DNA from: Chloroflexota bacterium
GTDB taxonomy: Bacteria; Chloroflexota; Chloroflexia; QHBQ01
Length of the DNA stretch: 64,000 bases
NCBI GenBank assembly: GCA_025355955.1
Contig: JANXYP010000016.1
Location: forward strand, 73 to 64,072
Reading direction: 5' to 3'
The translations under genes and the position numbers were made by a program. Position 1 is the first letter of the stretch. Every line of letters starts with the position of its first letter. Shown here in pieces: positions 27,722-64,000 of the stretch. The notes beneath the pieces were generated by a model. The model did not search any database. It worked only from the letters and a program-made list of their open reading frames with translations, and was not told where the DNA came from.

Positions 27722-27795
27722 TGGGCTGTCGTCTAACGGTAGGACGTCTGATTCTGGATCAGAAAGTTGAGGTTCGAATCCTTGCAGCCCAGCCA
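27722..27795 (+). tRNA. tRNA-Gln (anticodon CTG), CCA encoded
   Basis: Hand-folded cloverleaf. The acceptor stem is TGGGCTG/CAGCCCA. The anticodon stem is TCTGA/TCAGA with loop TTCTGGA. The T-loop is TTCGAAT, and the 3' end is GCCA. Confidence 0.85.
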
Positions 27796-27929: not shown

Positions 27930-28005
27930 AGGCGCGTGGCTCAATTGGCAGAGCATCGGTCTCCAAAACCGAGGGTTGGGGGTTCGAGTCCCTCCGCGCC
28001 TGCCA
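27930..28005 (+). tRNA. tRNA-Trp (anticodon CCA), CCA encoded
   Basis: Hand-folded. The acceptor stem is AGGCGCG/CGCGCCT. The anticodon stem is TCGGT/ACCGA with loop CTCCAAA. The T-arm is GGGGG-TTCGAGT-CCCTC. Its position before secE-nusG is classical. Confidence 0.85.
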
Positions 28006-30773: not shown

Positions 30774-31607
30774 TTGCCAACAGCTGAGAAGCAACAAACG
30801 ATTAAAGAACTGTCCGCGCTGATGAAGAAGAGCGCAATGATGGTGCTGACCGACTATCGCGGCATGACGGTGGCCGACATCAGTGACCTACGCCGCCAGA
30901 TGCGGGCCAAGGGCGTAGAGTATCACATCACCAAGAACACCCTGACCGTGCTGGCCGCCGAAGATGCGGGTATAGACATGACCAGCGAATTGCGCGACCT
31001 GCTCAACGGGCCAACCGCAATTGCCTTCTTGACCGACGACATCGCGGCGGGCAGCAAGATGATCAACGATTATCTGCGTACCGCACGGGTGATGAAGGTC
31101 AAAGCCGCATTGCTCGAAGGAAGGGTGATGAAGGCGGAGTCGCTGGCCGACATTGCCAAGCTGCCAGGGCGGCAGCAACTGCTAGCCTCGATACTCGGAC
31201 TCGTGCAAGCGCCACTCACCAGCCTGGCCTCCAGGCTCAACCAGATCATCAGCGGCCTGGCGACTGCCCTAAAGCAGCACGCCGATAACCAGAGTAGCGG
31301 AGTTAACGCCGAGACGGCTACGACTGCGGAAGCAGCCCCTGCCAGCGAAGCAGCGCCCGCCAGCGAAGCAGCCTCTACTGAGGTGGCTCCTGCTAACGTA
31401 GCCAATCCTAGCGAAGCAGCCTCTACCGAGGCGACTCCTGCTAGCGAAACCACACCTAGCGAAGCAGCCTCTACCGAAGCAGCGCCTGCTAGCGAAGCAA
31501 TGCCTACTAGCGAAGCAGCGCCTGCCAGCGAGGCAACTCCTGACGAGGCGGCCCCAACTAGCGAAGCAGCGCCTGCTAGCGAGGCTACGCCTGGCGAGGC
31601 AGCTTAA
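30774..31607 (+). CDS. rplJ: 50S ribosomal protein L10 with a ~107-aa low-complexity C-terminal extension
   Basis: The TTG start follows GGGAGGTG. The canonical L10 part covers residues 1-170 (VLTDYRGMTVADISDLRRQMR). It is followed by (EAAPASEA)-like repeats up to residue 277. Confidence 0.9.
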   Translation: MPTAEKQQTIKELSALMKKSAMMVLTDYRGMTVADISDLRRQMRAKGVEYHITKNTLTVLAAEDAGIDMTSELRDLLNGPTAIAFLTDDIAAGSKMINDYLRTARVMKVKAALLEGRVMKAESLADIAKLPGRQQLLASILGLVQAPLTSLASRLNQIISGLATALKQHADNQSSGVNAETATTAEAAPASEAAPASEAASTEVAPANVANPSEAASTEATPASETTPSEAASTEAAPASEAMPTSEAAPASEATPDEAAPTSEAAPASEATPGEAA

Positions 31608-38223: not shown

Positions 38224-41061
38224 CTAAACCTCGCCCAGGAAGTGCGCGTTGGGGGCAATGTCCATGGCCCAGTCGGAGGTGTCGGCGCGGTCGCGGGCTG
38301 CGCCCTGGGCATGGTAATAGCGATAATAGGCGGCTGCGCCGATCATGGCGGCATTATCAGTGCAGAGCGCCATTGGGGGGTAGATCAGCGGCACTTTGAG
38401 CCGCTCACCCATCATCTCGCGCAGCAGGCGATTGGCGGCCACGCCACCTGCTAGCACCACCATCCGTGCGCCATACTGCTCGGCTGCTGCTGCTGTCTTT
38501 TCCACCAGCACCTCGACCACCGCCAGTTGGAAGGCGGCGGCAATCAAAGCCACCGGCGCATGACCTTTCTTGTCAGAGCCAGCACCAGCACCAACACTGC
38601 CGCGTACCCCCGGTGAGCGGGGCGCGTCTGCACCTAGCGAACGGTTGCGGCGGGAACGGTCATCATCGCCCGGCTCGTCCTCATCGTCGGCGGCGCTACC
38701 GACGCGGCTGCGAGGCGTATCGTCTTCCTCATTGTCAATATAGTCGCGCTCGTCGCGGTCATCGTCATCCGCGCTGCTGCCTTTCGGCACGGGTATTATC
38801 TCGCGCTGGGCAAGGGGTGCGCTGCGCTGAGGCAATTGGCCGGGGCGGGTATAGGTGCCGCGCTGCGACTGCGAGGGCGGCAGAGGGCGGGGCCGATTCA
38901 ACGGTGGTGGGGCGCTGGATGTTGCCGACGGTTGCTGGGCTGGCGACTGAACAGGCCGCTGCTGGGCGGGCGGTTGCTGGGTGGTACGCGACTGGGCGGG
39001 CGGTTGCTGGGTCGGTCGCTGCGATGCGGGCGGTTGCTGGGTCGGTCGCTGCGGTGCGGGCTGGTTGGGCCGTTGCTGCGGCGGTTGCTGGGTGGGGCGT
39101 TGTGGTGCCGGTTCGCTGCCCAGCACCGTGCTGCGGGGATAGATGTTGCCGCCACTCTGCGGTGCTGGTGGTTGTACCACTGGCTGGCCGGGCCGTTGCT
39201 GGGCTGGTGGATTAGGCTGAGGAGTAGGCGGTTGTGGCTGTGAACGCTGGTCAGTGGTGGGCGGATGCATAGCTCGACCCTGCGGCGATAGTGTGCGCGG
39301 CAGCGATTGTTCGTCCTCGTCCTCGTCCTCATCGTCTGCCTGTGGCGCGGTGCGGGGGTCGGGCGTAGGTACAGTGCGGAGTGGGCGGCGCTCCAGGCCG
39401 GGGCCAGTTACTGCCCCCGGTGGCGCAGGCTGCGGTGAACTGGCCGCAGTGGTGGTGGGCTGGTGCGGTGGATTAGCAGTGGCTGCTGGGGTAGCGATCT
39501 CCACCCCATCCTCATCGTCGAACATCGAATAAATAGCGCGGGGGCGCGGCGCGGCCTGGCGCAAGGGGCGACGCTCCAACGCGGGACTAATGGGGGTGGC
39601 GCTTACTGGCGGTTGCACATTGCCATTTTCGTTCTCGTCCCCCTCGTCGTCGTCATCATCACCCTCTTCATCATCATCAGCGGTTTCGTTGGCATCGCGT
39701 ACGAACAGGCTGGCGAGGCGGTCACGCGGCGGTTGTGGGCCGAGGCGGAAGCTCGGCTCCGGCGCGACTTCATCCCCATCATCGTCGGCTTCGACCGCTG
39801 GCGCAGGTGGCAGCGTTGTGGCGCGAGGTGGATTGGCCGGTCGCACTGGCTGGGCAGGCGCGATGCTGGGAGCGGGTGGTACGATGGTGCGGGCGGGAGG
39901 AGTTGGTGGATCGGCCGGTTGCGTTGCAAGTTCTGCGGGTCGAGTCAGGCGGGCAGGCGGTTGGAAGCCACGCGCTTGCGGTTGGCGCGTAGGTTGGTCG
40001 GCGGGGGCAGGCATCGCCAGCGGTTCGCTCACCATTGCAGTAGGCGACTGGCCGGGGCGCACACTGTTGCTATCGCTGGTGGCCTCGCGCCCGGCGGCAT
40101 CGCTACGCTGCTGCGCGGCCTCGACCTCGGCGAATGGGCGCGGCTTATCTACCACTGGCAACCCGCCATACTCGTCAATCTTACGCATCACCGCCGTCTT
40201 CAGCCCGCTGAAGCTGAAGTCGTAGGTGCCGCGCAGCCAGGCGCGAGGCAGGTCAATCTTGCGCGGGTCGACGGGTTCGGCATCGACCAGCTTCTGAATC
40301 GCCGGGCCGCCAGGGTAGCCGAGGCCGAGGATGCGTCCCACCTTGTCGAACGCCTCACCCGCCGCATCATCAATCGTCTTGCCCAGCAGTTCGTACAGCC
40401 CATGCCCGCGCATCAGGATCAGTTCGGTATGCCCGCCCGACACCACCAGAGCAACAATGGGGAACTGCGGTTCTGGTGGTATAGCGACTCCCTCCCCGAT
40501 CTTAGGGGAGGGTTGGGGAGGGGGCGCGGGTTTTGGCACAGGCTCACCCACTGGACGATAGACCGGCGCGGATTGCTCGTAAGCGGCGCGGTACTGGCGG
40601 CTGGACGGCTCCTCGCTATTTATGTCCGACTCCTCAGCGTCGGCGCTGGTGGGCAATTCGGCAACGACCGGCTTGGGCTTGGCAGCGCTATTGGGGATGA
40701 GCCAGTTAGCGTAGATATGGCCCTCGAGGTGGTTGACTGGCAGCAGCGGCTTGCCCAGGGCAAACGCCAGCCCTTTCGCCACGTTGACCCCCACCAGCAA
40801 CGCGCCCGCCAGCCCTGGTCCGTTAGTCACGGCGATGGCATCAATATCGCGCCAGGTGAGGCTCGCTTCCTTCAGCGCAGCTTCCAGGGTTGGCACGATG
40901 TAGAGGATGTGCTGGCGGCTGGCAAGCTCAGGCACGACTCCACCCCAACGCTTGTGCAGCTCGATCTGCGAAGCGACCACGTTGGTGAGGATGCGGCGGC
41001 CATCCTGGATGATTGCCGCCGAGGTTTCGTCACATGAAGTTTCAAAGGCGAGGATGTTCAT
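38224..41061 (-). CDS. tsaD: tRNA N6-adenosine threonylcarbamoyltransferase TsaD interrupted by two large low-complexity insertions (945 aa)
   Basis: The N-terminal part reads [50 protein letters not shown]. The C-terminal part reads [13 protein letters not shown]...CTDNAAMIG. It is one continuous ORF. The inserts cover about residues 124-198 and 300-833. Confidence 0.88.
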
Positions 41062-41069
41062 AGTTTTCT

Positions 41070-41738
41070 CTAGTTGATGTATCCCAACTTGACCAGAGCG
41101 CTTCGCAAATCCGCCTCGAAACGCTGGAAGGATGGTACCTGATGAAGCAGTTGTAAGTTAATGCTTTGGCCGATTATGCCCAGAAAATCCGTTCCGCGTT
41201 GGCGCTCACCTCGTCGCCTAACGACACGTTCACCAAGGACTCTTTGATAGGCGTTCTCCAGTAGTGCTTTAGGGTCAGTCTTTGTTTCCACCAAGCGTGG
41301 CCTGGCGGGAATACCCATCTCGACATTGCTCTTGTTGGTTTGAAATACGTTTCTCAACGTTTCACCATCCACCAATGCCCAGGCTTCCATCTCTCTTACC
41401 GGAATGATGCCAACTACTGGGCAGCCAATAGAAGCAGTTACCAGCTCTGTCACTGGCTCAATATGGTTTTGCTGTGCCGCTTCCCAGCTTCCCCCTGCAT
41501 CTGCATGGATTAATAGAATGTCGAACCAACCTTCATATGGTCGTGTGGCATACAGGATGCGTTGCCTTTCGCTGCTGGCACTCTCTTTTTCAGGATAAAG
41601 CTCGATTATTTCTTCGACATCAATCTCACCACTATTGCCGGTGCAGATTGCTTGGGCAGTGCGTCGTATCAGGCTGAGGAAGAAGCGATAGTCGGAACGG
41701 CCCTCACCATAGAAGGCTAGCTTAAGCTGCCTAGTCAT
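41070..41738 (-). CDS. TOPRIM-like small protein (DUF4276-like), putative nuclease partner of the upstream ABC ATPase
   Basis: The ATG at 41738 (9 nt after GGGAGG) overlaps the ATPase stop in ATGACTAG. Motifs are [14 protein letters not shown] (Glu-Gly strand), LLIHADAGG (acidic cluster) and [12 protein letters not shown]. The DUF4276 assignment is from memory. Confidence 0.6.
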
Positions 41739-43119
41739 GTACAACTACCTCCCAGTCAATGGTTGAGAGATAGCGGTTGACTTGATATTTGCTGGTGAAC
41801 TGACTTCTTGTCCCAAAGCCAACCGGCAACTTGGGCAGCACACGTCTTGCGATCGTTTTGCGGCTGGATGCGCTGACTAGAGGCCTGACAGACATTGCCA
41901 TCTCGGTAAAGATGGTCTCCCCTTCCTCTACGCTAATGCTTGACAGAACCACAGGCGAATGGCTGGTAAGCAACATCTGCAAAAGATTCTGTTCATAAAT
42001 GTTTTCGTCAGCTACATTAGTGACGAGTTCGCGCAACCTGCTCACTAGCTGCTTAAGGCGTAGTGGGTTAATGCCGTTCTCTGGCTCCTCCAGACAAATC
42101 AAGCCCTGCTGATCGGGGTCGTAGAGCATTGCTAGTACCGCCATAGTGCGTAGCGTCCCGTCCGATGCAGTAGCGCAATCCATAAACGCTCCGCCGTTCG
42201 CCCGCACTTTGATATAATAGCGGTTGCCTTGGTCAAGTTCAACCTCGAAATCTTCAATCCCTGGAATCAAATCGGCTAGATCGGTGGCAATATCGTTGAG
42301 CACACCGCGGGGATAATCAGAAGTCGCGGTTATCGCTTGTATTCTCGCCAACGCGCTTGCCAGGTTAGATCCATCATTGCCGATCTCGCGGCTAGTTGCT
42401 GGACTTGGTTCGCGCAAGGCTCTGGGATTGAGTTGGAGGAAGCGATAGGCAGCTAGTTCTTGGCGCAAGGCATAGAGATGCGGTAGTTCGCTACTCTTAA
42501 TGCTCGCCAGCATTGGTGCTTCGGCGTATTTCTGTTGGCGGCGCACCTCTTGTTCTTGCCTACCATCAGGGTACATAACAAAGGCTATACTATCTCCCTG
42601 ATATCCGCTAATACTAGTGAGTAGGGGTCTACTACAGTTATATTTAACATAGCGTTCTCTGAATTGCTCGGAGGAAGGGTTAAGCTCTCGAATCCAAATA
42701 TCCTCTTGCTCTATGATGGGTCGTACTTCCTCTTTGGTTACAACTATGATACGCTCACCACGCTCGTTGACCAGACGCTGGATATTCAGCTCATAGCGAA
42801 GACGAGTACATTCTAGGGTGATTTGTTCGCCCAGACTCCCAGTCACGTTGGGGTCTAGTAGCACTTCGACGGCGAAAAACATCTGATCGCCACTCCGTCC
42901 ATCTGCGTATCTGGTGAACAACTCGTCAGGTGCGCCGCGAATGGCGCTGAAGGCAGCGCTGAGATTGTCGCTGGTAACTGCCCGGCTCACTGCCTGAACA
43001 GCATCCAGAATATTCGACTTACCCGATGCGTTTGGCCCCAGGATAACTGTAAAAGGACCGAGGTCCAGACTGAAGTTTTCAAAGCTCTTAAACCCGCTAA
43101 TCTCAATTCGGGTTAGCAT
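41731..43119 (-). CDS. SMC/RecF/OLD-type ABC ATPase (AAA_15/AAA_21-like)
   Basis: 462 aa with the N-terminus MLTRIEISGFKSF, Walker A GPNASGKSN, signature-like ASDGTLRTMAVLAML, Walker B LICLEEPENGINP and H-loop LLTSHSP. Composition is lower-GC. Confidence 0.8.
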   Translation of the reverse strand: MLTRIEISGFKSFENFSLDLGPFTVILGPNASGKSNILDAVQAVSRAVTSDNLSAAFSAIRGAPDELFTRYADGRSGDQMFFAVEVLLDPNVTGSLGEQITLECTRLRYELNIQRLVNERGERIIVVTKEEVRPIIEQEDIWIRELNPSSEQFRERYVKYNCSRPLLTSISGYQGDSIAFVMYPDGRQEQEVRRQQKYAEAPMLASIKSSELPHLYALRQELAAYRFLQLNPRALREPSPATSREIGNDGSNLASALARIQAITATSDYPRGVLNDIATDLADLIPGIEDFEVELDQGNRYYIKVRANGGAFMDCATASDGTLRTMAVLAMLYDPDQQGLICLEEPENGINPLRLKQLVSRLRELVTNVADENIYEQNLLQMLLTSHSPVVLSSISVEEGETIFTEMAMSVRPLVSASSRKTIARRVLPKLPVGFGTRSQFTSKYQVNRYLSTIDWEVVVHD

Positions 43120-43128
43120 CTTGTCCCC

Positions 43129-43842
43129 CTAATGTTCCTCAGCAAGCTGGCTGGGTGCGGGATTAGCGGCGCGGGCGGGTGCTCCCTTCTGCTGCGCTTT
43201 GGCGGCCATACGCTGCTCTAGTTCGGCCCGCAAGCGGGTAAGACGGCGCTGAAACTCGTCGCTTTGTAGCGGCTCCGACCACATGATGAAGGCATCCTCG
43301 CCGTTATCGCTATAGTAGCGGCGGCGGCGACCTGCCTCCTTCAATCCGTACTTGCGGTAGAGCGCTTGCGCTACTGTGTTCGAGACCCGCACTTCGAGGG
43401 TCAGCCAGATGGCCTTCATCTCCAACGCCTGGTCAATCATCGATAGGAACAGCAGTTCACCCACGCTTTGCCCCTGATGGCTGGGCATAACTGCTATGGT
43501 GGTAACGTGTGCCTCATCCACCATCAGCCACAGGCCAGCGTAGCCGACGATCGGGTAGGGGTTGGCCGCGCCCGCGCCTGGTTTGTCGCTAGCGAGGAAG
43601 GGGAGCAGCCGCGTTAGCCAACTGCGTTCACTCTGCCGCAGGCTCTTGCTGCCGTTGGCCTGGGCCAGCTTGGCCTTGATCGGGTCATCCACCCAGCGAG
43701 CCACCACGTAGCGGTTGGTGTTGGGGGTACGCAGTTCGCGACGATACGCGCTGGTCGGCCACGGCAGGCTGAAGCACTGCCGCTCGATGCCTGCCACTGC
43801 GTCAATATCGTCGTAATCCATCGGCTCAATGATGTATGGCAA
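43129..43842 (-). CDS. rimI: Ribosomal-protein-alanine N-acetyltransferase RimI (GNAT) with a C-terminal extension
   Basis: IERQCFSLPWPTSAYRREL and the acetyl-CoA loop HQGQSVGELLF. The ~60-aa C-terminal tail is predicted helical and charged. Confidence 0.8.
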   Translation of the reverse strand: MPYIIEPMDYDDIDAVAGIERQCFSLPWPTSAYRRELRTPNTNRYVVARWVDDPIKAKLAQANGSKSLRQSERSWLTRLLPFLASDKPGAGAANPYPIVGYAGLWLMVDEAHVTTIAVMPSHQGQSVGELLFLSMIDQALEMKAIWLTLEVRVSNTVAQALYRKYGLKEAGRRRRYYSDNGEDAFIMWSEPLQSDEFQRRLTRLRAELEQRMAAKAQQKGAPARAANPAPSQLAEEH

Positions 43843-45528: not shown

Positions 45529-47415
45529 TTAATCGTGTCGGTAGATGCGGACGTGGCGATAGGGTTCGCGCCCTTTCGACGCACTGGCGAGGTTGTAGCG
45601 CTCGGCCATCTGGTGTTGCAGGCGACGGATGTAGGCGTTCTGCGGCGCTAGCTCGACCGCCTCGGTGCGCTCCTCCAGCACCTCGGTAATCGCCTCTTCG
45701 GTTTCGTAGAGCGCGTGCTGAACGGGATCGTGGTGCAACTCGGCCTCGAAGATGCTGCCCAGACTGCTCTGCATCTGGGTCACGGTGTTGCTCTTTAGCA
45801 CGTAGACGGGCAGCCCCTCGGCCTCGGCCTGGCGGATGGCGGTCGGCTTCTTGCGGAAGTGCGTTTTCAGGGTCATTACCATGTCAGCGCCGCTGCTCTG
45901 TTCCACCAGAGTGACCGGCACGCCTAGTTCGTGGATGGCCTGCTCCAGCCCCTTCTTGCTGACCCCAAAGGGGTAGACACGCAATGGGCGGGTTTGGGTG
46001 CCAGGCATCGCCTCACGGCTCTGCGGCGAGGGCGGCGCTGGCGGTGGCGCAGTCTGGCTCTGCGGCCGCAGCGCAGGCTGCCCATGATTGCTGCTGGCTG
46101 GGCGGGCTGGCAACGGTGTGCCGGGCGGGTTGACCACGGTATAGCCGAGCGGCGGCGCTGAACGCTGGCTCTGTCCCTGCTGCCCCTGGTGTGCTGACTG
46201 CCCGCTGCCGCCGCGCATCCGCCCGCCATTGATGGGGCGGGGACGCGCGCCGCCGCGCTGGAGCGCAGTGCCACCTGTCTCCATCATCTGTAGCACCTCG
46301 GTTTCGCGGGTTTCAATCGTGCCATCCAGTTTGCGGGTACGCACCTCGGCGGGCATTTGCTGCCCACGCAAGATCGAATCCACTGTTTCGGCGACGTTAT
46401 CATGCACTGCGACCTGATCGCGGTCCAGGATCTCCACCATAATGTCGAAGGTGGGCGGCGCTTTGCGCTCCAGCACCGATTTCTGGGTGCCACGCCGCCG
46501 CGCTTCCTCGTCGGACAGCGTGACGCTTTGGATGCCGCCGATCAGGTCGGAGAGGGTGGGATTCATCATCAGGTTTTCTAGGGTCGAGCCGTGGGCGGTG
46601 CCGATCAGTTGCACACCGCGCTCGGCGATGGTGCGGGCGGCCATCGCCTCAAGCTCGGTGCCGATTTCGTCAATGATGACTACCTCTGGCATATGGTTCT
46701 CCACCGCCTCGATCATCACCGCGTGCTGGCTGGTGGGGGTCTTGACCTGCATGCGGCGGGCGCGGCCAATCGCGGGGTGAGGGATGTCGCCATCGCCCGC
46801 GATTTCGTTGCTGGTGTCTACGATGACCACCCGCTTACGAAAGTCGTCGGCCAGCACGCGGGCAGTCTCGCGCAGCATGGTGGTCTTGCCCACCCCTGGC
46901 GGGCCAACCAGTAGCAGACTGCGCCCCGACTCGACCAGGTCGCGGATAATCGCAATCGTGCCGAACACAGCGCGACCGACGCGGCAGGTCAACCCTACCA
47001 CCTTACCCGCACGATTGCGGATACAGGAGATGCGGTGCAGCGTGCGCTCGATACCGGCGCGATTGTCGTCGCCAAACACGCCGATGTGCGAAACAACGTG
47101 CTGGATGTCCTCTTCGGTCACATCGCGGTCACTAAGGATGATCTCGCGTCCACGGTAGCGGGCCTCCGGCTTGCGGCCCAGGTCCATGATAATTTCAAGC
47201 AAGTCGCGGCGGTCATCAGCGGCGGCCAGGGTGTCGTAGATGTGTGGCGGCAGCGCGGCCAGTAGCACTTCCAGGTCATCGCTGATCTCCATCTCGCCTG
47301 CGGCCCGCTCATCGCTGCTCTGATCGGCGGGGTAGCCGGGGCGGGTGCTGCTGCCATAGGGCATAATATTATACTGTCCGTAAACCTGCTCCTGCGGCTC
47401 AATTAGGTCGGCCAT
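45529..47415 (-). CDS. AAA ATPase with a C-terminal R3H nucleic-acid-binding domain (SpoIIIAA/Ycf45-like)
   Basis: Walker [14 protein letters not shown], Walker [10 protein letters not shown] and the C-terminal R3H-like segment [30 protein letters not shown] ~110-aa Gln/Pro/Gly-rich insert is present. The ATG at 47415 follows GGAGGTG. Confidence 0.75.
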
Positions 47416-47453
47416 TATCACCTCCGCTGTGTAGGGCGTGATCACTCATACCC

Positions 47454-56120: not shown

Positions 56121-56195
56121 TAGGGATACGCAAGGCGCACGGCCATGCGCCCCATGGACTGGTCAAATTCTATCTTCTACATTCTACCTTTAACT

Positions 56196-56699
56196 ATGAC
56201 TATTCGACACCAGGAACCAGTTGCCAGCCACGAGCTTGACCTGATCAGTCACAGCGTGGAGCAGACGCGACGCATCGGCGCACGGCTGGCCGCGCTGTTG
56301 CGGGAGGGCGATGTGCTGCTGCTGGAGGGGCAACTCGGCGCGGGCAAGACGGCGTTTACCCAGGGGGTAGCGGCAGGCCTCGGCATCCACGACTACGTCA
56401 ACAGCCCTACCTTCGTACTGGTCAACGAATATCCTTCGGTTCTGCCGCTCTATCATATCGACCTCTACCGTCTTGACGACCCCCGCCAGGCAATTGACAT
56501 CGGCATCGAGGATTATATTGGTGGCGACGGCGTAACCGTAATCGAGTGGCCGGAGCGCGGCGGCGAGTTCATGCCTGAAGAGCGGCTACTCATCCGTCTC
56601 ACCTACTTGAGTGAAACCAAGCGCACCATTCGCATAAGCGCGGTAGGCCGCCGCTACACTACCCTGCTCAACCAGTTCAAGCAGGATGCTTTCGCCTAA
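56196..56699 (+). CDS. tsaE: tRNA t6A biosynthesis ATPase TsaE
   Basis: LLLEGQLGAGKTAFTQG is the Walker A motif, and SPTFVLVNEY is also present. The ATG at 56196 is preferred over the ORF-track start at 56145. Confidence 0.85.
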   Translation: MTIRHQEPVASHELDLISHSVEQTRRIGARLAALLREGDVLLLEGQLGAGKTAFTQGVAAGLGIHDYVNSPTFVLVNEYPSVLPLYHIDLYRLDDPRQAIDIGIEDYIGGDGVTVIEWPERGGEFMPEERLLIRLTYLSETKRTIRISAVGRRYTTLLNQFKQDAFA

Positions 56700-56860
56700 A
56701 ATGAAACCCCGCCCCTTTTTGTGAGCACTGGAGTCTAAAAACCCCTTCTCCCCTTTTGTGAGCGTTAGAGTCTAAAACCCCTCCCCCTTGCGGGAGAGGC
56801 TGGGTGAGGGGTAATCAGGCATCGCACGAAGGCTACTCGAAACTACGGAGGCTACTCGGC

Positions 56861-57565
56861 ATGACCATGCTAGCGATAGACACCGCCACTGATAACGCCA
56901 GCGTCGCGCTTTACAGCACTGTGGGAGTGGTCGCCGAGCAAACCTGGCGGGCGCACCGCGAACAAACCGCCCAGCTTGTGCCGGTGATGCAATCGCTGAT
57001 GCACTACGTCGGTCTTACGCCGGGCGAACTGTCAGCAGTGGCCTGCGCGGTGGGGCCGGGTAGCTTCAACGGCCTGCGGGTTGGCCTTAGCACCGCGAAG
57101 GCGGTGGCGACCGCCCTCAGTATTCCCCTCTACGGCCTCAGCAACCTCGACAGTCTTGCCTATCAGCACGCCGATATCAGCACGCGCTTGACGGTGTGGG
57201 CAGTGGTGATGATCGGGCGCGAACGGTTGGCTACCGCAAGCTATCGCACCACCACCCCACGCGGCGGCAATCCCGAATGGCGGCGCACCAGCGACTACCG
57301 CAACGTCAGCGTTAGTGAGCTATCCGACCTGCTCACCAGCCCCGCTTACGTGGTCGGCGAACTGAACCCCACCATGGTGCAGGAAATCGAGTCGCGGGCG
57401 GGTGATCTAGTCACGATCGCGCCGCCCGCCGCTGCCTTGCGTCGCGCTGCCTACATCGCCGAACTAGCCTGGCGGCGCAAGCAGCGTGGCGACCTCGGCG
57501 ACGACATCGCCGATCTGCAGGCTATCTACCTTGCCTCGCCCGCGCCTTCCGCCCCGCGTTCGTAA
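56861..57565 (+). CDS. tsaB: tRNA t6A biosynthesis protein TsaB
   Basis: MTMLAIDTATDNASVALY and GPGSFNGLRVGLSTAKA. The ATG at 56861 is preferred over the ORF-track start at 56804. Confidence 0.85.
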   Translation: MTMLAIDTATDNASVALYSTVGVVAEQTWRAHREQTAQLVPVMQSLMHYVGLTPGELSAVACAVGPGSFNGLRVGLSTAKAVATALSIPLYGLSNLDSLAYQHADISTRLTVWAVVMIGRERLATASYRTTTPRGGNPEWRRTSDYRNVSVSELSDLLTSPAYVVGELNPTMVQEIESRAGDLVTIAPPAAALRRAAYIAELAWRRKQRGDLGDDIADLQAIYLASPAPSAPRS

Positions 57566-61369: not shown

Positions 61370-64000
61370 ATGCGTACTCGTAAACTGGCAAGCGGGCTGG
61401 GCCTGTTGGTGGCTGCTGCGCTGGCCCTGGCACCGCTGGTGGCGCTTGCCTACGACTGGCCGCAGTTCGATGGCAACGAGCAGCACTCTGGCAATAACAC
61501 CCAGGAATCATTGATCAACATCGGCAACGTTGGCGCGTTGCAACAGTTGTTTCGCGTTTCCTTGCCCGATACCGCCGATAGTTCGCCCGTCTACTTCAGC
61601 AGCGTGATCACCGGCACCGGCAGTGTGGATACCGTGTTCGTCACCACCAAAGCTGGCAGGCTGGTGGCGTTGAACGCCCATACCGGCGCGACCATCTGGA
61701 TGCGGCAGGCGGCAACTGGGCCACAGTATACCACATCCTCACCGACGCTCGATCCTAACCACACTGATCCCGCCCACCAGTTCGTCTATAGCTACGGACT
61801 GGACGGCTACGTTCACAAGTACAACGCAGGCGATGGCAGCGAGACGATCGGCGCGGGCTGGCCGGAGACTGCCACGCTCAAGCCCAGCGTGGAGAAGGGT
61901 TCAGCGGCGCTGGCAACCGCCATCTACACCGATGGCACGCCCTACCTGTACGTCGCCAACGGCGGCTACCCCGGCGATGCGGGCGACTACCAGGGCCACG
62001 TCACCACTATCAACCTGAACACTGGCGCACAGAATGTCTTCAACGCGGCGTGCAGCAACCTGACTGTGCACTTCGTGTTGAATGGCACGCCAGGCGTGAA
62101 CGACTGCCGCCAACACCAAAACGCGGTGTGGGCGCGTCCTGGAGTGGTTTACGACCCCGATACCAACAAGATCTACGCTGCCACTGGCAACGGTAACTTC
62201 AATGGCAACACCGGCGGTTACAACTGGGGCGATAGCGTAATGGAACTCAACCCCAACGGCACCGGCGCGAATGGCAAGCCGCTCGACTCCTACACCCCCG
62301 CCGATTTTCAGCACCTACAAAATGTTGATGCTGATCTGGGCAGCACCAACCCGGTGATTCTTTCCATGCCCATCACCAGCACTTACCAGCACGTCGCCGC
62401 TCAGGGTGGTAAGGATGGCATCATCCGTCTGATCAACCTCGACGCGATGAGCGGCGCGGGCGGACCGGGGCAGTTGGGCAACGAGATCCAGAACCTCGAC
62501 ATCCTCAACGGCAATGAGATGCTGCCCTCGCCTGCCACCTGGATCAGCCCTAGCGACCAGAGCCGCTGGCTATTCGTCAGCACCATAAGCTATGGCCTGG
62601 ACGGGATGCAGATCGTCTACACTGGCACGGTGCCTGGGTTGCGCGGGCGTTGGCATATCAGCTCCAACAACCCCTCATCGCCAATCGTTGCCAACGGGGT
62701 GCTGTTCACCGCTCACATTGGGGCGATTAGCGCCTACAATCCCCTCACCGGCGTATCGCTGTGGAGTGGGTCTATCGGCAACATCCATTGGGAAAGCCCG
62801 GCGGTGGTAAACGGCATCGTCTATATTACCGATGAGAGTAGCAGGATTACCGCCTACGCTCTGCCCAGCAGCGGGACACCAACGCCGACCAATACAGCGA
62901 CTAACACGCCGACGCGCACCAACACGCCGTCATTCACGCCGACCAGCAGCAACACGCCGCTGCCGCCAACCAGTACAGCGACGCGCACGCCCCTGCCGCC
63001 TACCAGTACCTCGACGAGTACGCCGTTGCCACCCACGAATACGGAGACGAGTACGCCGCTGCCACCCACGAATACGCCCACAGATACACCAACGAACACG
63101 CCACTGCCGCCCACCGACACGCCAACCCTGACTGACACGCCAGTGCCAACCGCTACACCGACGAACACGCCTGTGCCGCCAACCGACACACCAATCCAGA
63201 CCGACACACCCACTGCGACCAGCACGCCCGTGCCACCGACTGCCACACCAGCGCCACCGACTAGCACCCCACCGCCGAGCAACACCCCCGGCGGACCAAC
63301 CGACACCCCTGGCGGTCCAACCAACACTCCACCCCCGACCAACACCCCACTGCCGACCAATACGCCCGGCGGGCCAACCAACTCACCTGTGCCACCGACA
63401 AATACGCCACTGCCAGCGACCAACACGCCCGGTGGGCCGACCAATACACCTGCGCCGCCCACGGTGACACCAACCGATTGCGCCAACCCCTTCGTGGACA
63501 TCACGGGCAATATCTTCTACATCGCAATCCACTACCTGAATTGTCGTGGGGTGGTTAACGGCACCAACGCAACCCACTACTCGCCTGCTGGCACCTCCAC
63601 AAGAGGGCAGTTCGCCAAAGTTGTCGTCCTCGGCTTTGGCTTGCCGTTCTACACCCCCAGCGGCGCACAGGACTTCACCGATGTGCCACCTGGCTACTTC
63701 GCCTACTTGTTCATCGAGAGCGGCTTCCACGCCGGTATCCTTAGCGGCTTCGACTCGGCTAGCTGCATCGCGGCGGGCGCGACCCCGCCTTGCTACCTGC
63801 CCAACCGCCCGATCACCAGGGGGCAACTGACCAAACTGGTGGTGCTGGCCGCTCACTATCTGCTGATCACACCGACCACTCCCAGCTTCATTGATGTGCC
63901 GTCGAGCAACGTTTTCTACGCATTCATCGAAACCGCCCACGCACACAATGTGGTCAATGGCTACCCCGACCGCACCTTCCGCCCAAATAATAGCATCCGC
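61370..64000 (+). CDS. Secreted PQQ-like beta-propeller protein with a Pro/Thr linker and C-terminal SLH domains (3' end beyond the window)
   Basis: Absent from the ORF track because it runs off the right edge. The ATG at 61370 follows AAGAAAGGGG. The signal peptide is MRTRKLASGLGLLVAAALALAPLVALA, followed by YDWPQFDGNEQHSGNN and propeller blades. A TP-rich linker spans about 62870-63470. SLH-like repeats follow (FVDITGNIFYIAIHYL, FTDVPPGYFAYLFIES, FIDVPSSNVFYAFIET). Confidence 0.8.
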   Translation, partial: MRTRKLASGLGLLVAAALALAPLVALAYDWPQFDGNEQHSGNNTQESLINIGNVGALQQLFRVSLPDTADSSPVYFSSVITGTGSVDTVFVTTKAGRLVALNAHTGATIWMRQAATGPQYTTSSPTLDPNHTDPAHQFVYSYGLDGYVHKYNAGDGSETIGAGWPETATLKPSVEKGSAALATAIYTDGTPYLYVANGGYPGDAGDYQGHVTTINLNTGAQNVFNAACSNLTVHFVLNGTPGVNDCRQHQNAVWARPGVVYDPDTNKIYAATGNGNFNGNTGGYNWGDSVMELNPNGTGANGKPLDSYTPADFQHLQNVDADLGSTNPVILSMPITSTYQHVAAQGGKDGIIRLINLDAMSGAGGPGQLGNEIQNLDILNGNEMLPSPATWISPSDQSRWLFVSTISYGLDGMQIVYTGTVPGLRGRWHISSNNPSSPIVANGVLFTAHIGAISAYNPLTGVSLWSGSIGNIHWESPAVVNGIVYITDESSRITAYALPSSGTPTPTNTATNTPTRTNTPSFTPTSSNTPLPPTSTATRTPLPPTSTSTSTPLPPTNTETSTPLPPTNTPTDTPTNTPLPPTDTPTLTDTPVPTATPTNTPVPPTDTPIQTDTPTATSTPVPPTATPAPPTSTPPPSNTPGGPTDTPGGPTNTPPPTNTPLPTNTPGGPTNSPVPPTNTPLPATNTPGGPTNTPAPPTVTPTDCANPFVDITGNIFYIAIHYLNCRGVVNGTNATHYSPAGTSTRGQFAKVVVLGFGLPFYTPSGAQDFTDVPPGYFAYLFIESGFHAGILSGFDSASCIAAGATPPCYLPNRPITRGQLTKLVVLAAHYLLITPTTPSFIDVPSSNVFYAFIETAHAHNVVNGYPDRTFRPNNSIR

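Follow-up and report, generated by a model that had tools for sequence, protein, structure and literature searches.

A 64-kb stretch of DNA from a Chloroflexota bacterium (contig JANXYP010000016.1; hereafter the window) carries at positions 38224-41061, on the reverse strand, one continuous open reading frame (ORF) of 945 codons that starts with ATG and encodes TsaD, a tRNA-modifying transferase. TsaD is among the few enzymes found throughout cellular life, and it normally varies very little in size and in its loops. In the window the conserved core of the enzyme is divided into three blocks by two inserts, which together account for 65% of the protein (Table 1). Here we describe the core and the partner genes, the small family of relatives that has the same architecture, and the composition, selection and predicted structure of the inserts, and we weigh the readings that these observations permit.

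An earlier note on this DNA, written from the letters and translations alone, had described a continuous ORF of 945 residues in which collinear TsaD blocks are separated by large insertions; this description holds, with all quoted motifs in place. The assignment to TsaD, also made there, is carried by the NCBIfam equivalog model TIGR03723 (381.5 bits against a cut-off of 296.1), by PF00814 of Pfam, which matches the protein in three stretches (8.8e-89; 298 bits against 24.8), and by TsaD entries recovered at 2.6e-75 when phmmer was run against all PDB sequences. Residues 1-122, 197-297 and 838-940 align collinearly by phmmer with residues 1-122, 125-224 and 233-338 of Escherichia coli TsaD. 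The same three blocks are reproduced by a profile of 30 normal-size Chloroflexota TsaDs, and block 2 aligns directly with residues 122-221 of the Thermotoga maritima enzyme. The motifs VNHLEGH (residues 109-115), SGGHTELI (208-215), GYPGGP (248-253), FSFSGLKTA (282-290) and CTDNAAMIG (900-908) are accompanied by further conserved TsaD blocks at residues 7-17 and 870-880.

The residues on which function depends are distributed over all three blocks. Metal ligands H111 and H115 in block 1 and D902 in the CTDN motif of block 3 are present and invariant in family alignments, and they align with the ligands of the E. coli and T. maritima proteins, Asp296 of the latter being a zinc ligand (PMC13276492). 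Residues of tRNA recognition are likewise intact and invariant in family alignments (G40GVVP44, S208, D231/D232, K240, R243 and F282SFSGLK288); a 2026 cryo-electron microscopy (cryo-EM) study of T. maritima TsaB2D bound to tRNA describes the roles of GGVVP, at the anticodon loop, of the DD loop, of the Lys and Arg residues at the TsaB interface, and of FSFSGLK (PMC13276492). AlphaFold2 models the core at a predicted local distance difference test score (pLDDT) of about 85-97, and Foldseek returns E. coli TsaD chains as the best structural match of this model (4YDU, 6e-24), with template modelling (TM) scores against 4YDU TsaD of about 0.61-0.63, normalised to the target and, as values for a prediction, to be read as such. 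The two-lobed ASKHA fold is recognisable in this predicted model.

Genes for the canonical partners are also present in the window: tsaE and tsaB, on the opposite strand, and rimI, the usual operon neighbour, upstream of tsaD on the same strand. In four relatives (L051, L053, L054 and L055) rimI lies just upstream of tsaD, and in two relatives belonging to subclade B, defined below, the expanded tsaD closes a classical tsaE-tsaB-rimI-tsaD operon. To judge from these comparisons, the 945-residue protein is a genuine and complete TsaD, the predicted transferase subunit of the bacterial TsaB-TsaD-TsaE machinery for N6-threonylcarbamoyladenosine at tRNA position 37 (t6A37), with its canonical partners.

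The RimI protein of the window has features of its own: it is 237 residues long, TIGR01575 covers residues 98-187 only, and the remainder comprises an N-terminal extension and a C-terminal tail rich in Ala, Pro and Gln.

Table 1. Positions of tsaD, its core blocks, inserts and motifs, and of the partner genes, in the window (residue numbers are those of the 945-residue protein)
Feature	Position	Strand	Evidence
tsaD, tRNA N6-adenosine threonylcarbamoyltransferase with two internal inserts	38224..41061	-	TIGR03723, PF00814, PDB matches
Core block 1, residues 1-122, N-terminal ASKHA lobe	40696..41061	-	E. coli 1-122; pLDDT 83-95
Insert 1, residues 123-196, 74 residues, Pro/Ala/Ser/Glu-rich	40474..40695	-	None in E. 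coli or T. maritima TsaD; pLDDT 33-57
Core block 2, residues 197-297	40171..40473	-	E. coli 125-224, T. maritima 122-221; pLDDT ~85-92
Equivalent of helix alpha7, D-stem-reading, residues 285-298	40168..40209	-	T. maritima mapping; AlphaFold2 helix 285-297
Insert 2, residues 298-837, 540 residues, Pro/Ala/Arg/Gln/Asp-rich	38551..40170	-	phmmer, profile, T. maritima alignment
Predicted helix at base of insert 2, residues 309-331 (23 residues)	40069..40137	-	AlphaFold2 pLDDT 58-72
Acidic run, residues 462-480	39622..39678	-	Part of blocky charge segregation (z = 9 against shuffles)
First LERRPL, residues 495-500, followed by acidic patch	39562..39579	-	GL(E/Q)RRPL kept in P0002 and P0003
Second LERRPL, residues 556-561, followed by acidic run 576-584	39379..39396	-	Kept in P0002 and P0003
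Acidic run DDEDEDEDE, residues 576-584	39310..39336	-	Read from translation
Tandem QRPTQQPP-type Pro/Gln repeats, residues ~649-702	38956..39117	-	Tandem Repeats Finder
Short motif PVPK-G, residues 755-766	38764..38799	-	V, P, K and G invariant in 6/6 insert sequences, both subclades
Short motif RNRSLGA, residues 805-811	38629..38649	-	RSLG invariant in 6/6 insert sequences, both subclades
Core block 3, residues 838-945, alpha8 + GGVAAN + CTDN	38227..38550	-	E. coli 233-338; pLDDT 79-97
rimI, usual tsaD operon neighbour	43129..43842	-	TIGR01575, 113.9 bits against cut-off 86.4
tsaE, ATPase partner, normal size	56145..56699	+	TIGR00150, 128 bits against cut-off 60
tsaB, dimerisation partner, normal size	56804..57565	+	TIGR03725, 139 bits against cut-off 69

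A small family that carries both inserts

About seven clusters at 90% identity, drawn from independent assemblies (NCBI, ENA, JGI and Logan), contain a TsaD with both inserts. They comprise the window protein itself (P0001), a 943-residue orthologue that is 78% identical to it (P0002), further members of 892-913 residues (P0003, with 10 cluster members; P0004; P0005, with 6; and P0008) and the truncated P0009. A partial locus whose record is labelled 'Chloroflexia bacterium' (L018) has the two-insert architecture too, and searches of the protein database, together with tblastn against species-representative genomes, confine the architecture to these members. The clade is small and is known from metagenome assemblies only.

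In a neighbour-joining tree built from 334 core positions, the expanded TsaDs group together as a single clade (181 of 200 bootstraps), divided into subclade A (the window, P0002 and P0003) and subclade B (P0004, P0005 and P0008). Its sister group consists of normal-size TsaDs from Thermomicrobiaceae, HR26 and P0006. A single acquisition of both inserts, before the members of this small Chloroflexia-labelled clade diverged, is the simplest account of this monophyly. Their lengths vary little: the motifs that flank insert 1 are 78-81 residues apart and insert 2 measures 481-537 residues in every member, and no known member of the clade has lost either insert. The earlier note had proposed that related strains be examined for polymorphism of insert length; such variation proves minimal, since within the 90%-identity clusters it is limited to microindels of one to three residues, which fall within a run of acidic residues or of Pro.

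Several other candidates were rejected. Wide tblastn spans at eight loci (L001, L003, L004, L027, L030, L037, L038 and L039) resembled expanded TsaDs, but ORF extraction and profile mapping identified normal proteins of 347-378 residues, the additional span being due to adjacent genes (tsaB, for example) or, in L038, to sequence that follows the TsaD domain. TsaD matches of 580-900 residues, considered as independent insertions between alpha7 and alpha8, are TsaB-TsaD or TsaB-RimI-TsaD fusions or N-terminally extended proteins, and none of the long matches inspected has an alpha7-alpha8 insert. Three TsaB-RimI-TsaD fusions from another lineage (P0100, P0086 and P0067) do carry low-complexity inserts of about 28-75 residues at the site of insert 1, between HIYAN.. 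and PPF..SGGHT, which are unrelated to the one described here: one of about 75 residues is Ala/Pro-rich, one of about 55 residues is a tandem array of 'PEANSSEPDGLKAN', and one has about 28 residues. The insert-1 site is thus a recurrent permissive spot, and the insert-2 site, in the material examined, is unique to the family. A further enlarged protein, P0010, is a 581-residue TsaD from outside the window, of probable Patescibacteria origin. About 170 of its residues are duplicated internally, a segment starting 'KKREKLEIGNWKLRDAKRQVGRLMPYKK' being present in two copies, through either a genuine tandem duplication within tsaD or a mistake of assembly.

Codon alignments were used to compare the ratio of nonsynonymous to synonymous substitution rates (dN/dS) between core and inserts. 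For the window gene and P0002, its orthologue at the syntenic locus L051, the ratio is 0.057 in the core, 0.216 in insert 1 and 0.190 in insert 2; for P0005 and P0008 the corresponding values are 0.065, 0.244 and 0.184, and over three subclade B pairs the ranges are 0.065-0.079, 0.19-0.24 and 0.18-0.31. The start of insert 2 (residues 298-357) has a ratio of 0.12, and all indels in the alignments are in frame. These values indicate that the inserts are under purifying selection.

Composition and predicted structure of the inserts

In the alignment, insert 1 runs from residue 123 to 196 (nt 40474-40695) and insert 2 from residue 298 to 837 (nt 38551-40170), close to the approximate limits first proposed (124-198 and 300-833). 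Insert 1 occupies the crossover between alpha3 and beta6, which connects the HxxxH helix, in the N-terminal lobe, with the strand that opens the C-terminal lobe. Insert 2 stands in for the short loop between alpha7 and alpha8, which corresponds to residues 225-232 in E. coli and to residues 224-227, 'KGYK', in T. maritima; the placement of this insert at a short surface segment of the E. coli enzyme, as made in the earlier note, agrees with the alignment.

In insert 2, Pro accounts for 20% of residues, Ala for 12%, and Arg, Gln and Asp for 9% each, in keeping with its initial description as Pro/Gln/Ala-rich with acidic runs, now located at residues 462-480 and 576-584; hydrophobic residues make up 12% of insert 2 as against 37% of the core. 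DNA repeats coding for QRPTQQPP-type units, noticed by eye at about 38940-39110, are recovered by Tandem Repeats Finder at 38957-39118, as arrays of 3.6-4.5 copies that recur every 27-30 nt and match at 72-86%, and the window protein and P0002 differ there by small in-frame indels. These repeats lie, with Arg-rich and acidic blocks, in a Pro-rich spacer. Towards the C-terminal end of the insert, an acidic ADDED stretch between the PVPK-G and RSLG motifs is collinear in both subclades, and this part of the insert contains six four-residue words common to the subclades where 0.83 are expected (p ~0.001). Models and alignments together predict that insert 2 begins with a helical base, the length of which varies, continues as a long disordered region rich in Pro and ends in a C-terminal stretch that bears the motifs. 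Segregation of charge within the insert exceeds that of 500 out of 500 shuffled sequences in subclade A (z = 9-11), as against z = 0.3-1.9 in subclade B, and blocky charge patterning, considered as a signature of the whole family, was dropped because it holds in subclade A only.

Both inserts of the window protein are modelled by AlphaFold2 at pLDDT below 50, apart from the helix at residues 309-331 and a weak one at 156-163. The former is the counterpart of the base of a 115-residue helix in subclade B: in P0004 a single continuous helix is predicted at residues 301-415, with pLDDT of 86-97 at its base and about 70 farther out, and about 370 residues of predicted disorder lie beyond it; other short helices are predicted at residues 730-742 and, in insert 1, at 144-151. 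The helix at the base of insert 2 is a candidate for a charged single alpha-helix, an E/R/K-rich stalk, or for a coiled coil. Because pLDDT is below 50 in two independent models and hydrophobic content is low, both inserts are predicted to be intrinsically disordered, as the initial inspection of their low-complexity sequence had also held.

The junctions of insert 2 can be placed with respect to bound tRNA by reference to T. maritima. In that TsaD, helix alpha7 (A210-E223), which opens with F207SFSGLK213, rests on the D-stem of the tRNA and contacts base pairs 10:25, 11:24 and 12:23 from its N- to its C-terminal end (PMC13276492). Direct alignment pairs F207 with F282 of the window protein and alpha7 (210-223) with residues 285-298. 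This mapping of alpha7 and of the KGYK loop puts the exit of insert 2 exactly where the D-stem-reading helix ends on its C-terminal side. The chain re-enters the fold at alpha8, so that the insert would form a long loop, closed at both ends, next to the bound tRNA.

Searches for a source of the inserts found none. Neither insert has a Pfam match at E up to 1 or a match among PDB sequences. A profile of insert 2, built from six family members and searched exhaustively against 1.84 billion representative proteins, gave a single match, P0008, itself a member of the family. The inserts appear to be lineage-specific sequence with no donor domain and most plausibly grew in place, as fits the tandem repeats of 27-30 nt that encode the QRPTQQPP units. 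Rfam found nothing at the tsaD locus; in the window as a whole, only two tRNA genes scored above its gathering threshold, at 27722-27792 and 27930-28002 on the forward strand, about 3 kb upstream of the gene for ribosomal protein uL10.

The surroundings of tsaD include further observations. Between rimI and tsaD, at 41070-43119 on the reverse strand, lie two overlapping genes with a G+C content of about 0.50 as against 0.64 in the flanks, which encode a 462-residue AAA_21/AAA_15 ATPase and a 224-residue DUF4276 protein. The pair matches HEC-01, a candidate anti-phage system of PADLOC (HEC-01A, 1.4e-141; HEC-01B, 3.7e-59). It is missing at the syntenic locus L051, where rimI abuts tsaD, and at the same spot in L053 the ATPase is reduced to a 73-residue fragment, so that the rimI-tsaD junction looks like a site of insertion and decay of this island.

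Elsewhere in the window, a second core protein of translation has a long low-complexity extension: uL10 (30774-31607, forward strand; NF000955, 153 bits, residues 5-172) has 277 residues instead of about 170, its C-terminal tail of about 105-120 residues being composed of Ala/Ser/Glu/Thr/Pro repeats ('SEAAPASEATP' units). A secreted protein that begins at 61370 on the forward strand and runs past the end of the window at 64000 has a signal-like N-terminus, a region that by eye resembles a beta-propeller, a Thr/Pro/Asn-rich linker of about 220 residues ('TNTPLPPTNTP' repeats) and a C-terminal region resembling SLH repeats. A 638-residue SpoIIIAA-like ATPase (45529-47445, reverse strand), the apparent counterpart of a gene at 5635-7530 of L051 with SpoIIIAA and R3H Pfam matches, includes a Gly/Gln/Pro/Ser-rich linker of about 55-90 residues at residues ~436-490.

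Weighing the readings

The reading that we favour, at a probability of roughly 0.6, is that the protein is a genuine TsaD, two loops of which expanded once into disordered sequence that selection has since kept, at nearly constant length although most of its letters have drifted, as a flexible, non-catalytic appendage. A selected role is suggested because dN/dS in the inserts is about 0.2, insert length has been stable over deep divergence, short motifs are shared between the subclades, and insert loss is absent. The inserts would lie outside catalysis, and the appendage might raise the capture or retention of tRNA, or of another RNA or protein partner, near the surface that binds the D-stem; alternatively, the conserved short motifs of insert 2 may recruit a partner. 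Either would give the enzyme a tethering or localising function beyond that of canonical TsaD.

Several points weigh against this reading. Binding of tRNA or of a partner by the inserts is something we infer, and the suggestion that insert 2 would emerge toward the D-loop or elbow side of the tRNA rests on residue mapping. Blocky charge is strong in subclade A only, so that no universal physicochemical signature exists, and insert 2 has no significant BLASTP similarity between the subclades (E = 65). The dN/dS of about 0.2 may partly reflect selection against harmful (aggregating or hydrophobic) substitutions only. The unrelated low-complexity inserts found elsewhere at the insert-1 site fit simple tolerance, as do the low-complexity expansions in the window's own uL10, secreted protein and SpoIIIAA-like ATPase, and a second tsaD of normal size may exist elsewhere in the genomes of the clade.

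The main rival is tolerated expansion, which the earlier note had set beside scaffolding or condensate formation, and it draws on the same observations. It is possible, although we consider it the poorer account, that slippage and compositional drift inflated two permissive loops in a nearly neutral manner, selection acting merely to keep the added sequence soluble, in frame and harmless. Such tolerated expansion would explain the tandem DNA repeats and microindels within insert 2, the long low-complexity segments of other proteins in the window, the unrelated inserts at the insert-1 site of the fusion proteins, which are of the Coriobacteriia type, the lack of significant insert 2 similarity between subclades A and B, and the lack of a charge pattern common to the two. 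It does not readily account for dN/dS values of 0.18-0.31 in four independent pairs, far under the neutral value of 1, nor for lengths of 78-81 and 481-537 residues that persist although the inserts themselves now share 25-40% identity or less, nor for collinear short motifs common to both subclades, nor for the presence of both inserts in every known member with no secondary loss. Even if the inserts are merely tolerated, they represent a clean bacterial case of long-lived low-complexity expansion in an essential gene.

A bolder proposal, which we regard as doubtful, is that the inserts constitute a new functional module of the t6A machinery: a disordered arm of about 500 residues, set at the end of the D-stem-reading helix. 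By way of its helical stalk, its Arg-rich and acidic blocks and its PVPK-G and RSLG motifs, the arm would capture tRNA, act as a gate between tRNA and TsaE, which bind in mutual exclusion, or bring the enzyme to a partner, for instance the ribosome or an RNA-processing condensate. If true, a bacterial TsaD would have gained an accessory function comparable to those of the additional KEOPS subunits Cgi121, Bud32 and Gon7.

Two further explanations are very improbable. Repeat-rich DNA of high G+C content invites assembly errors, and the earlier note had named a frameshift or assembly artefact, or a locus yielding separate N- and C-terminal products, as what would overturn its description; the same architecture recurs in intact ORFs from assemblies of four sources, no indel disturbs the reading frame, and dN/dS values far lower than 1 show purifying selection in the sense frame over the inserts. 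The enzyme, moreover, needs D902 of block 3 as a metal ligand, which requires that this block fold together with the other two. As far as sequence data allow, we therefore exclude that the locus is artefactual or a pseudogene, or that it contains an overlapping gene.

The size of insert 2 and the presence of long antisense ORFs (for example 524 residues at 39463-41037, forward strand) could suggest a foreign insertion, be it an intein, the remnant of a mobile element or a captured domain, or else an antisense gene that overlaps tsaD, but the inserts have no Pfam, PDB or NCBIfam match, no other protein among the 1.84e9 representatives has the sequence of insert 2, no folded domain is predicted by AlphaFold2 in the window protein or P0004, and antisense and alternative-frame ORFs shift position between relatives, so that they appear to be by-products of high G+C content and were rejected as genes. 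An intein is ruled out, as initially argued, by junctions (EY|GGLPVV and KKGHA|PVAL) that lack C/S/T and His-Asn, by the lack of a Pfam Hint match and by the lack of a predicted fold.

On the favoured reading of a selected appendage as on its main rival, the family reveals how much non-globular sequence an essential enzyme of the ASKHA fold can carry within its fold. The alpha7-alpha8 loop and the alpha3-beta6 crossover are marked as permissive sites, useful for tagging or engineering TsaD, Kae1 and OSGEP, and the family offers a simple test of whether intrinsically disordered regions (IDRs) in bacteria can equip a core enzyme of translation fidelity with further roles in substrate capture, regulation or localisation.

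Comparison with known systems

Canonical TsaD, as represented by E. coli YgjD (4YDU) and by the T. maritima enzyme (6N9A and the 2026 tRNA-bound cryo-EM structures), belongs to the same family and has the same core, motifs, TsaB and TsaE partners and rimI neighbour. It differs in length, with 327-343 residues as against 945, in the crossover, which has about 2 residues as against 74, and in the alpha7-alpha8 loop, which has about 4-8 residues as against 540. The archaeal, eukaryotic and mitochondrial orthologues Kae1, OSGEP and Qri7 share the ASKHA fold and motifs with the expanded TsaD; Kae1, Qri7 and TsaD differ from one another by small loop insertions and deletions only, according to a 2022 review, which also records that the yeast and human t6A machinery includes an intrinsically disordered component (PMC9654439). 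Gon7/GON7 of KEOPS is a separate small disordered subunit that binds Pcc1, whereas the disorder predicted here is internal to the catalytic subunit.

Other TsaDs are also enlarged, namely the TsaB-TsaD and TsaB-RimI-TsaD fusions and TsaN (TsaD-TsaC-SUA5-TcdA, PDB 8IDE), and some have low-complexity inserts at the insert-1 site. They grow by end-to-end joining of folded domains, and none of those inspected has an insert between alpha7 and alpha8. In a full-text search of the literature we found no TsaD described with large internal inserts or disordered regions; known enlarged TsaDs are domain fusions.

Conserved housekeeping enzymes of Plasmodium falciparum resemble the expanded TsaD in having long, compositionally biased, non-globular segments within surface loops. 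The Plasmodium inserts are Asn/Lys-rich and pervasive across the proteome of an AT-rich eukaryotic genome. The expanded TsaD, by contrast, comes from a GC-rich bacterium, its inserts are rich in Pro, Gln, Arg and Asp and of conserved length, and the phenomenon concerns one enzyme in one small clade. Of the P. falciparum inserts, at least one is reported to change nucleic-acid binding (PMC11260460).

Disordered appendages that bind RNA or form condensates are represented by the C-terminal region of RNase E and by the Lys-rich tRNA-binding extensions of eukaryotic aminoacyl-tRNA synthetases. A further example is provided by the C-terminal IDRs of RhlE helicases, which are reported to set functional specificity (PMC11260450). 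All of these are terminal tails, whereas the TsaD inserts are internal loops. The tails nevertheless provide a possible working analogy, in that a charged disordered segment is attached to an enzyme acting on RNA, and insert 2 of subclade A, unlike that of subclade B, is similarly charge-blocky.

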